DNA of 64,000 nt from a virus (taxonomy: Duplodnaviria > Caudoviricetes): positions 192,001 through 256,000 of the IMG/VR virus record IMGVR_UViG_3300028888_000047; one strand, written 5' to 3'. The position numbers and the translations under genes were made by a program. Every line of letters begins with the position of its first letter. Within the stretch, counting starts at the first letter, position 1. The notes beneath the pieces are model-generated. The model saw nothing but the letters and a program-made list of their open reading frames with translations. It made no database searches and was not told the origin of the DNA. Below, in pieces: positions 37,304 through 39,199 of this stretch.

Positions 37304-37770
37304 ATTCGTCTTTTAATTTAATTATTAAACCGTGTATAAATTCTATTATAAAATCTATATTCACAACAATCAAAAATAAACAAAACAAAACAGTTAGAAT
37401 CAATACGCCATCAAAAAATAGTCCTATTATTCCTCCCATAATTTTATTAACTTAGTTTTTTATTTTATTTTTTTCAATCCATCGATAATATCTTCCATTT
37501 GTTCTTCCGTAATAAATACATCTGAATCAAAATGTCCATATTTATCATATAAAGTTAGTCTATATGCTGGTAAATCATTTTTCAATCTATCTTCAGAATA
37601 ATCAAGACTAACCCTTTCAGTGTCTACAAAATATTCCATATCTATTCAATTTTAAATTATTATTTTGAATAAATATGTCATAAACGTAAAAAAATACCAT
37701 ACTTACCAAATATACAAAAAAAACCTTAAAGAAACAAATCTTTAAGGTTAAATAATGTTAAAATAATCTG

Positions 37771-37858
37771 TTATGAGTGCAAGATTCGAACTTGCGGTGA
37801 GTTATTAACTCACACCGGAGCCAGAATCCGGCGCCTTAAACCCCTCGGCCAACTCACA
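37771..37858 (-). tRNA. tRNA-Gln(CUG) with a class-II long variable arm
   Basis: Acceptor TGTGAGT/ACTCATA plus A73; D arm GCCGAGGGGTTTAAGGC; anticodon arm CCGGA-TTCTGGC-TCCGG; variable arm GTGAGTT-AAT-AACTCAC; T arm GCAAG-TTCGAAT-CTTGC. Confidence 0.85.
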
Positions 37859-37979: not shown

Positions 37980-38216
37980 CTAATCCCACCCCCATATTTC
38001 ATGTGACATTGGAAACCTCATTGACATTCTTTTCACAAAACTATCATTATACCATTTTTTCTTCCTGAAATACCATTTAAATTTACTATGATTTCTTCCT
38101 AAGACATGAGCAGTTGTTTTTCTCCATGACTGCCTGGCATACCAAGGTCTCTTTGTCTTTTTCAACATTTTTCTCCAAAACTTTTTTGGGGTGTTGAATT
38201 TTTTGCCTTTACTCAT
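37980..38216 (-). CDS. small very basic K/R/W-rich protein (78 aa)
   Basis: Start reassigned to MSKGKK because the longer ORF overlaps tRNA-Gln. Confidence 0.6.
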   Translation of the reverse strand: MSKGKKFNTPKKFWRKMLKKTKRPWYARQSWRKTTAHVLGRNHSKFKWYFRKKKWYNDSFVKRMSMRFPMSHEIWGWD

Positions 38217-38221
38217 ATTTG

Positions 38222-38296
38222 CCGGGGCAAACCGAGTCGAACGGTTTCTAGGAGTTCCAAAGGCTCCTGTGACATTTGCCGATACACCATACCCCG
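38222..38296 (-). tRNA. tRNA-Gln(UUG)
   Basis: Acceptor CGGGGTA/TGCCCCG plus G73; anticodon arm GGAGC-CTTTGGA-ACTCC; T arm AACCG-TTCGACT-CGGTT; enlarged D loop. Confidence 0.85.
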
Positions 38297-38344: not shown

Positions 38345-38376
38345 AAAAAATCCCATCAGTATTTCTACTAATGGGA
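38345..38376 (-). terminator. intrinsic terminator of the putative Gln attenuator
   Basis: TCCCATTAGTA-GAAA-TACTGATGGGA-TTTTTT immediately upstream of the tRNA-Gln genes. Confidence 0.85.
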
Positions 38377-38418
38377 ACATTTTATGAAAACATCCTTGGA
38401 AAAGGTCAATACAATATC

Positions 38419-38448
38419 TGTATCAACCGTTCCCATATGGTTGATACA
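38419..38448 (-). promoter_or_regulatory. protector hairpin holding the anti-terminator strand
   Basis: TGTATCAACC-ATATGGGAAC-GGTTGATACA; the loop ATGGGAAC is complementary to GTTCCCAT (38371-38378), which overlaps the terminator 5' arm. Confidence 0.7.
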
Positions 38449-38450
38449 AC

Positions 38451-38489
38451 TTAAATCTGTTGTTGCTGTTGTCGTACTATATTCTTCAT
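38451..38489 (-). CDS. poly-Gln leader peptide MKNIVRQQQQQI
   Basis: ATG AAG AAT ATA GTA CGA CAA CAG CAA CAA CAG ATT TAA, 7 nt downstream of the ATATTTAT motif (38497-38504). Confidence 0.75.
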   Translation of the reverse strand: MKNIVRQQQQQI

Positions 38490-39062: not shown

Positions 39063-39163
39063 ACCGCCGTGTCTACCAATTCCACCATACTACGGATAGA
39101 TATGGTTGTCTATTTCCCGTAGCAATGGGATTCGAACCCATACGGCTCATTTCGTCCAGCGGT
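39063..39163 (-). ncRNA. circularly permuted tRNA-Leu-like RNA lacking an anticodon loop (YrlA-like topology)
   Basis: Order is 3' half (ACCGC-variable arm-ATGGG TTCGAAT CCCAT-TGCTACGG), 20-nt hairpin linker, then 5' half (CCGTAGTA-TG-GTGGAATTGGTAGACAC-G-GCGGT). The halves are mutually complementary. Confidence 0.75.
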
Positions 39164-39199
39164 TTCCTTGCTTAATTATTACTTGCTGTTACTTTCCTT

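Follow-up and report, generated by a model that had tools for sequence, protein, structure and literature searches.

A conserved phage family of probable glutamine tRNAs on a serine-type, long-arm scaffold

The window analysed here, a stretch of 64,000 nucleotides from a rumen phage, contains at positions 37,771 to 37,858 of the minus strand an 88-nt gene that is probably a working, CAG-reading glutamine tRNA, one of a conserved phage family in which glutamine identity is carried by a serine-type class II scaffold. The family is apparently undescribed. Confinement of the long variable arm to the Ser, Leu and bacterial Tyr tRNAs, with tRNA-Sec as a further known case, is among the most stable rules of tRNA biology, and this arm is the main handle of seryl-tRNA synthetase (SerRS). 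How could a tRNA with such an arm serve glutamine? Is CAG read as glutamine in this phage at all? What is the extra arm for? The first-pass annotation, made from the sequence, had left two options: a tRNA-Gln that was given a new body, or a missense tRNA inserting Ser or Leu at CAG. The family, its conserved features and the meaning of CAG in phage genes argue for the former.

The source contig is a single piece of 317,464 bp with 32% GC, of which the window covers bases 192001-256000. It belongs to a 317-kb rumen phage; its phage protein genes include those for a head maturation protease and a DNA methyltransferase, and it also carries 36 tRNAs and one tmRNA. ARAGORN calls a tRNA-Gln(ctg) at 37770-37858 on the minus strand. 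The Rfam tRNA model RF00005 matches 37771-37858(-) over its full length (model positions 1-71) with 51.2 bits against a gathering score of 29, which is the top RF00005 score within the window, and the gene scores 102.8 bits against R1, the covariance model of its own family. It runs from U1 to A73 without an encoded CCA, as do most of the Bacteroidales tRNA-Gln genes examined. The acceptor stem (UGUGAGU/ACUCAUA) has U1-A72 and G2.U71 and is followed by the discriminator A73. The D arm, GCCGAGGGGUUUAAGGC (37833-37849, minus strand), is of the class II, Ser type, with G10, G15, G18G19 and extra D-loop residues. The anticodon CUG (37822-37824, minus strand) sits in the loop UUCUGGC, with U33, G37 and C38, on a CCGGA/UCCGG stem, and the T arm reads GCAAG-UUCGAAU-CUUGC. 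The variable arm occupies 19 nt (37796-37814, minus strand); its stem, GUGAGU(U)/(A)ACUCAC, has 6-7 bp and is flanked by one unpaired U on the 5' side and the unpaired C48 on the 3' side. The length of 19 nt agrees with the first reading of the sequence, but the 7-bp stem proposed there does not hold up so well: a seventh pair would leave a loop of 3 nt, 6 bp with a 5-nt loop is more realistic, and covariation backs five to six pairs across the family. The remaining features described in that reading (the cloverleaf, CUG, G37, U1-A72, A73 and the class II D arm) are all present, on the minus strand, which had been left unstated. The fold lies beyond chance (MFE z = -2.7). Its branch is not the 8/4 or 9/3 of the allo-tRNAs, as the acceptor stem has 7 bp and the T stem 5 bp, both with covariation.

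Does the gene have relatives? A synteny search via the neighbouring head protease gene led to 80 related viral loci, and the closest of these share a Leu-Leu-Gln tRNA island. The Gln slot of the island is occupied by long-arm tRNAs of 88-91 nt with the anticodon UUG or CUG in L001, L004 and L006, and by an ordinary tRNA-Gln of 72-73 nt in L002, L003, L005, L007 and L010. An exact-sequence search of IMG/VR for close relatives gave none, and degenerate patterns were needed. The first pattern combined the conserved D arm with a YUG anticodon and was searched in IMG/VR, metagenomes and bacterial and archaeal genomes. It matched 7 IMG/VR contigs and 40 metagenome stretches, which collapse to 33 distinct sequences; many of the metagenome stretches bear JGI sample prefixes also seen for related phages. 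Across 185,579 bacterial and archaeal species, each represented by one genome, this pattern had zero matches. A search of the INPHARED phage collection gave just a chance match to a Leu tRNA. The metagenome members were gathered with a pattern that requires YUG, and the sets unbiased with respect to the anticodon are the IMG/VR scan, the synteny set and the model search. The IMG/VR scan used a second, anticodon-blind pattern (D arm, T loop and A72-A73-C end): over 2.9 million viral contigs it returned the same 7 contigs only, and no member with another anticodon. The covariance model built from the family alignment was searched over 1.8 Mb of loci, where family members score at least 90.8 bits and are all YUG, including one (L234:103-192) whose D arm falls outside the first pattern; the best non-family matches are a class II Trp tRNA at 72.5 bits and phage Ser(GCU) tRNAs at 62-67 bits. 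The family counts 34 distinct homologues on related jumbo-phage and rumen metagenome contigs, and a Gln anticodon, UUG or CUG, is present in 34 of 34. Some metagenome contigs carry long-arm Gln tRNAs in tandem, CUG next to UUG (L231:1465-1650; L234:103-293). The homologue search suggested in the first-pass annotation, where Ser or Leu anticodons in relatives would have pointed to an error or a recent change, has thus been run and such anticodons are absent. A sequencing error in a Ser or Leu tRNA, or a recent point mutation of one, is ruled out by 34 divergent homologues that are all YUG.

The family alignment also tells what the extra arm is. Among 33 aligned sequences, 95% of the cells fall in standard pairs, compared with 75% after shuffling and 31-44% when the partners are slid. 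Two-sided changes are seen in 20 of the 26 pairs, including all six pairs of the variable-arm stem, and all five helices covary. Invariant positions are U1-A72, G2, U8, G10-C25, G15, G18G19, U33, U35, G36, C48, the TTCGAAT T loop and A73. The sequence and the loop of the variable arm are not conserved across the family, and pairing alone is kept. The extra arm is a maintained helix, and not an intron, an insertion scar or a misfold. The idea that it displays a copy of the anticodon loop was rejected, as the variable-arm loops have no common conserved sequence. A separate observation concerns a tRNA-Gln(CUG) of 73 nt at L232:2738-2808 (minus strand), which has G1 and combines a D arm of the class II type (GGCCGAGUGGUUUAAGGCG) with a short variable loop; it could represent an intermediate stage of the long-arm family or have derived from it.

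Which parts of the molecule resemble glutamine tRNAs and which do not? A sample of six Bacteroidales tRNA-Gln genes from five genomes (L379, L381, L383, L384 and L387) consists entirely of class I tRNAs of 72-74 nt, with U1-A72, G2, A73 (5 of 6), an anticodon loop UUYUGGU containing G37, and an A31.C39 mismatch closing the anticodon stem. The phage family shares U1-A72, G2, A73 and G10 with them, and usually also the missing CCA. The anticodon loops are alike as well: UUCUGGU or UUUUGGU with the A31.C39 mismatch in many family members, and UUCUGGC in the window copy. Class I tRNA-Gln genes of related phages have the same host-type acceptor end, loop and mismatch. The bodies, in contrast, differ. 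The Bacteroidales genes have a 4-nt variable loop and the D arm GGUGUAAUGGUAGCAC, whereas the phage tRNA in the window has 88 nt, a Ser-type D arm and the 19-nt arm. D arms of this type also occur in phage tRNA-Ser and giant-virus tRNA-Leu, the nearest outside the family being that of a phage Ser(UGA) tRNA. The phage tRNA-Ser type is seen in the D arm, in the T arm and in the layout of the variable arm, whose stem is preceded by one unpaired U and followed by C48, and the Ser(GCU) tRNA of L075 has D-arm and T-arm sequences identical to those of several Gln family members. As far as the sequences can tell, glutamine identity elements placed on a serine scaffold describe the molecule best. Identity would come from U1-A72, G2, G10, A73 and a U33-YUG anticodon loop of the host tRNA-Gln type, and the scaffold would supply the Ser-like D arm, a variable arm of 5-7 bp, G15-C48 and the Ser-like T arm. 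The re-bodied tRNA-Gln, the first of the two options offered at the outset, gains from the constancy of the Gln anticodons, U1-A72, G2, G10 and A73 in 34 homologues and from the host-type anticodon loop.

Which enzyme would charge such a tRNA? The GlnRS/GluRS catalytic domain (PF00749) is absent from all five phages compared (this phage, G000, and its relatives G001-G004), and neither a SerRS-type class II core over threshold nor a Leu/Ile/ValRS domain was found in them. A charging enzyme encoded by the phage was rejected, since the sole synthetase found in the five is a Bacteroidales-type TyrRS. This enzyme is full-length (G000:C1:183274-184170, minus strand); an RtcB RNA ligase is encoded as well (G000:C1:103617-104807, minus strand), and both occur in 5 of the 5 related phages checked. 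The phage TyrRS shares 54-59% identity with Bacteroidales enzymes, many of which come from rumen MAGs, and this likeness points to Bacteroidales as the likely host lineage. In five Bacteroidales genomes glnS exceeds the curated cut-off in all and gatB in none; with GlnRS present and GatB absent, tRNA-Gln is charged directly by GlnRS in that lineage. Most probably the long-arm tRNA-Gln is also charged directly by the host GlnRS.

Is the molecule a plausible substrate for GlnRS? The determinants of glutamine identity are the anticodon, acceptor stem, discriminator and 10-25 pair (PMC9976931), and the contacts of E. coli GlnRS are G2, G3, G10, positions 34-38, A72 and 73, a list from which variable-loop positions are absent (PMC5766645). 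The phage tRNA has a Gln anticodon with U35 and G36 (CUG here, YUG in 34 of 34), a weak first pair U1-A72 followed by G2 (33 of 33, with position 71 being U in 20 and C in 13), and G10 within an invariant G10-C25 pair. Its discriminator is of the host type, A73 being present here, throughout the family and in five of six Bacteroidales tRNA-Gln genes. E. coli tRNA-Gln has G73 at this position. Counting against a glutamine reading, the window copy departs from the E. coli GlnRS rule in having U3-A70 for G3-C70 and G2.U71 for G2-C71. Across the family, position 3-70 is G3-C70 in 24 of 33 and C3-G70 in 8, and host-lineage tRNA-Gln varies here too. The 19-nt arm also departs from the class I shape, with its variable loop of 4-5 nt. 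Class I synthetases approach the tRNA from the minor-groove side and leave the variable region to the solvent. The host GlnRS, a class I enzyme, would read the acceptor end, G10 and the anticodon, and the phage arm would face the solvent. As cited in PMC9976931, alteration of the 1-72 and 3-70 pairs turned a tRNA-Ser amber suppressor into a Gln acceptor (Rogers and Soll 1988, PNAS 85:6627), and thus GlnRS can, in the laboratory, accept a class II body. Some serylation is possible, as the long arm and the Ser-like core are the main SerRS handle.

An independent tie of the long-arm tRNA to glutamine is found upstream. On the minus strand the order is leader, alternative hairpins, terminator, tRNA-Gln(UUG), basic ORF, structured spacer, long-arm tRNA and final terminator. 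The leader is an ORF of 12 codons (MKNIVRQQQQQI, 38451-38489, minus strand) with five consecutive Gln codons (CAA CAG CAA CAA CAG). It is followed, ahead of both Gln tRNAs, by conserved alternative hairpins and a terminator region (38351-38450, minus strand), in which a terminator-like hairpin at 38351-38376 (minus strand) is the putative attenuator terminator. The partner tRNA-Gln(UUG) at 38221-38296 (minus strand) is called by ARAGORN and lies below the Rfam gathering score. It has a short variable loop and is atypical: U1-A72 and A73 are replaced by C1-G72 and G73, the D loop is enlarged and the anticodon stem contains a mismatch. Of the two tRNAs, the one with the long arm may decode Gln codons better. 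Between them, the RNA operon holds a short and strongly basic ORF (MSKGKKFNTPKKFWRK..., 37980-38216, minus strand), and the operon ends at an intrinsic-terminator-like hairpin with a U run (37722-37749, minus strand), 21 nt downstream of the long-arm tRNA.

This layout fits a trp-style attenuator that senses Gln decoding. The long-arm tRNA, as the last gene of the RNA operon below the poly-Gln leader and its terminator, would then probably be made when Gln decoding falls short. The placement of the gene under a Gln attenuator, already suspected in the first-pass annotation, agrees with the poly-Gln leader and terminator that precede the class II Gln tRNA in the window and at six further loci (L004, L224, L233, L248, L254 and L260, making seven with the window). 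The terminator of L254 stops 2 nt short of the long-arm tRNA, and no other gene lies under it. A poly-Gln leader within 700 nt is absent in 26 of the 33 family loci. MFE folds of the leader retained the terminator in both states tried; with no displacement of the terminator seen, simple two-state folding was set aside and the attenuator mechanism is hypothetical.

The glutamine tRNA has company. Throughout the clade, long arms recur on tRNAs that are usually short-armed. Beyond the window, this phage also encodes long-arm tRNAs for Cys (GCA, 97 nt; G000:C1:121423-121519), Met (CAU, 90 and 83 nt; 147543-147632 and 156365-156447) and Trp (CCA, 86 nt; 148502-148587), and the last of these shares the Ser-type D loop GAGUGGUUUAA. 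Related phages of 400 kb (G001, G002 and G004; L206-L221) have long-arm tRNAs of 80-96 nt with Arg, Thr, Lys, Pro, Asn, Val, Met, Cys and Trp anticodons. Class II Gln tRNAs often stand next to class I ones, with the same anticodon at about nine loci and with complementary anticodons at about nine. Neighbours with the same anticodon mean that the long-arm form is not merely filling in for a missing isoacceptor, and the proposal that class II tRNAs supply the anticodon missing in class I was dropped because it holds in about half of the loci. A further oddity of the window is found at 39063-39165 (minus strand), where a tRNA 3' half (T arm and acceptor strand) is followed by a spacer and a tRNA-Leu-like 5' half, in a circularly permuted layout.

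What would a phage gain from the arm? The presence of RtcB RNA ligase and TyrRS in all five phages is consistent with a conflict over tRNA integrity; a search for T4-type RNA ligases was also made, in which the controls gave no match. The anticodon loop often equals that of the host, so any escape would have to act through the shape of the body and not through changes in the loop. A factor that inactivates the usual type of tRNA-Gln could act poorly on a tRNA with this arm, and escape from tRNA-targeting factors, suggested in the first-pass annotation for tRNA-Gln-specific toxins, is a possible role for the arm. An adaptive role of this kind, whether escape or back-up, is well short of probable, and neutral capture of the scaffold from tRNA-Ser is about as likely. 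The most ambitious version would be that a clade of rumen Bacteroidales jumbo phages rebuilds its Gln, Trp, Cys, Met, Thr, Lys, Arg, Pro and Asn tRNAs on a Ser-derived long-arm scaffold while keeping their identities, and that the Gln version is a back-up decoder, induced through the leader attenuator when Gln tRNA is depleted and immune, through its body, to a host or phage factor that inactivates tRNA-Gln. This version is put forward tentatively and is doubtful as a whole.

Could the arm instead be there for no special reason? The tRNA would still be a functional glutamine tRNA, and its arm a neutral legacy of a tRNA-Ser-derived gene, acquired by recombination or by an identity switch in a crowded phage tRNA cluster and kept for the folding of the class II core. 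The near identity of the D and T arms to those of phage tRNA-Ser(GCU) or Ser(UGA) speaks for such an origin, as do the spread of long arms over many isotypes in the relatives, with no obvious pattern, and the conservation of pairing in the arm and not of its sequence or loop. On the other side, the arm was kept with compensatory changes over the deep divergence of 34 sequences, and the approximately nine loci at which a class II Gln tRNA adjoins a class I one of identical anticodon suggest that the two bodies are not equivalent. A purely neutral arm is a serious possibility, though less likely than not.

A greater departure from the preferred reading, that of a Gln-charged tRNA, is a missense or ambiguous decoder that receives, entirely or in part, Ser (from SerRS, via the arm), Leu or Tyr (from the phage TyrRS) and places the wrong residue at CAG. 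SerRS recognises mainly the variable arm and ignores the anticodon (PMC9976931), and the scaffold is Ser-derived, with the long arm and the class II core (G15-C48 and extended D loop) of a tRNA-Ser. However, bacterial tRNA-Ser has conserved G1-C72 and G73 (PMC9976931), and the phage's own Ser tRNAs keep GGAG...CCGC ends, whereas the window tRNA has U1-A72, G2.U71 and A73 in place of G1-C72, G2-C71 and G73, and a Ser anticodon is found neither here (CUG) nor anywhere in the family. With tRNA-Leu it shares A73, but it has G15 and a Ser-type D loop in place of the A15 and GAAUUGGUAGAC of the Leu type (the phage Leu tRNAs carry a GGAAUUGGUAGAC-type D loop), and its anticodon is not Leu. The resemblance to bacterial tRNA-Tyr is partial, and counts to that extent against the glutamine reading: A73, U35 and the long arm are common to both, and TyrRS is encoded by 5 of 5 phages. 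Yet positions 34 and 36 are C and G, unlike the GUA of Tyr, and the phage Tyr tRNAs are sequences distinct from the family.

The codon itself also opposes missense decoding. CAG is an ordinary Gln codon in phage genes. It is used 6.2 times per 1000 codons, which is 25% of the phage Gln codons, and it stands at invariant Gln sites: even in the phage TyrRS, the CAG codons 171, 196, 254 and 296 match Gln in 71-78 of 80 aligned Bacteroidales enzymes. An alternative genetic code was considered and rejected, as reading TAG or TGA as sense barely alters ORF coverage, stop usage is normal for code 11 and CAG aligns with Gln; TAG is the stop in 16 of 211 long ORFs. The phage does have a CUA-anticodon (amber suppressor) tRNA (G000:C1:154846-154923, minus strand), and the genome still fits the standard code. 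Together with YUG, held in 34 of 34 members across deep divergence, and the poly-Gln leader upstream as a putative control of the gene, this makes a missense decoder improbable. Deliberate insertion of Ser, Leu or Tyr is unlikely, and insertion of Ser or Leu at CAG, the other option in the first-pass annotation, is disfavoured by the same features. Least probable of all is a role outside translation, as a decoy or regulator in the shape of a tRNA that would titrate a nuclease directed at tRNA-Gln, or some other factor that binds tRNA: the permuted tRNA at 39063-39165 in the same genome and the RtcB ligase in all five phages, suggestive of tRNA conflict, lend it some colour, but all decoding features are intact and invariant (the 7/5 branch, U8, G18G19, the TTCGAAT T loop and the 7-nt anticodon loop with U33), as is the 7-bp acceptor stem with its identity-bearing end, and a decoy could do without this full set.

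How does a glutamine tRNA of this kind compare with known systems? Natural bacterial and phage tRNAs with long arms and anticodons outside Ser, Leu and Tyr have been described as allo-tRNAs, (8/4) tRNA-His and selC* tRNA-Cys (Mukai et al. 2017, PMC5389517). These have an 8/4 or 9/3 branch and mostly Ser identity elements (G73 or U73), whereas in the phage Gln family the branch is the canonical 7/5, with A73 and U1-A72 at the acceptor end, and PMC5389517 describes no Gln member. Nematode nev-tRNAs combine a long variable arm with class I anticodons (Hamashima et al. 2016, Mol Biol Evol 33:530, as cited in PMC5389517). They are eukaryotic, unlike the phage Gln family. Their bodies are reportedly of the Leu type, and they are said to be charged with Leu and hardly used in translation. 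A class II tRNA-Gln is absent from a 2020 review of non-canonical tRNAs (PMC7609411), and no description of one was found in the literature searched. The novelty lies in the Gln case, in the derivation of its scaffold from tRNA-Ser and in the association with a poly-Gln leader, long arms on unexpected anticodons being already known in the allo-tRNA group and the nev-tRNAs. The leader-attenuator link, if real, would provide a rare example of a tRNA gene that responds to how much of its own charged product is available.

Phage tRNAs that bypass defence offer a second comparison. Phage escape from tRNA-targeting defence is credited to mutations in the tRNA anticodon loop in the account of PMC10264068 and to the production of specific tRNAs in that of PMC11555353. 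As described there, phage substitutes for host tRNAs act amid tRNA cleavage, and the clade studied here has RtcB and a large tRNA set. Unlike the tRNAs of PMC10264068, as they are presented in that source, the anticodon loop here often equals that of the host and it is the body that differs; no defence system is linked to the tRNA here. The family provides material for asking what advantage tRNAs with new bodies give to phages when host tRNAs are contested, how GlnRS tolerates and SerRS rejects a class II body, and whether orthogonal tRNA scaffolds could be drawn from it.

The closest parallel is the engineered E. coli tRNA-Ser suppressor of Rogers and Soll (1988), as cited in PMC9976931, in which a class II Ser scaffold with U35 becomes a GlnRS substrate on changing the first and third acceptor pairs. 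Matching changes occur naturally in the phage family, with U1-A72 in all members and G3-C70 in 24 of 33. By that account the engineered tRNA is a laboratory mutant with a CUA anticodon, whereas the phage family is natural and conserved, has sense anticodons and is predicted to be charged with Gln. A natural, conserved Gln tRNA on a long-arm scaffold would mean that identity can be moved between tRNA classes in nature, as it was in that laboratory work.
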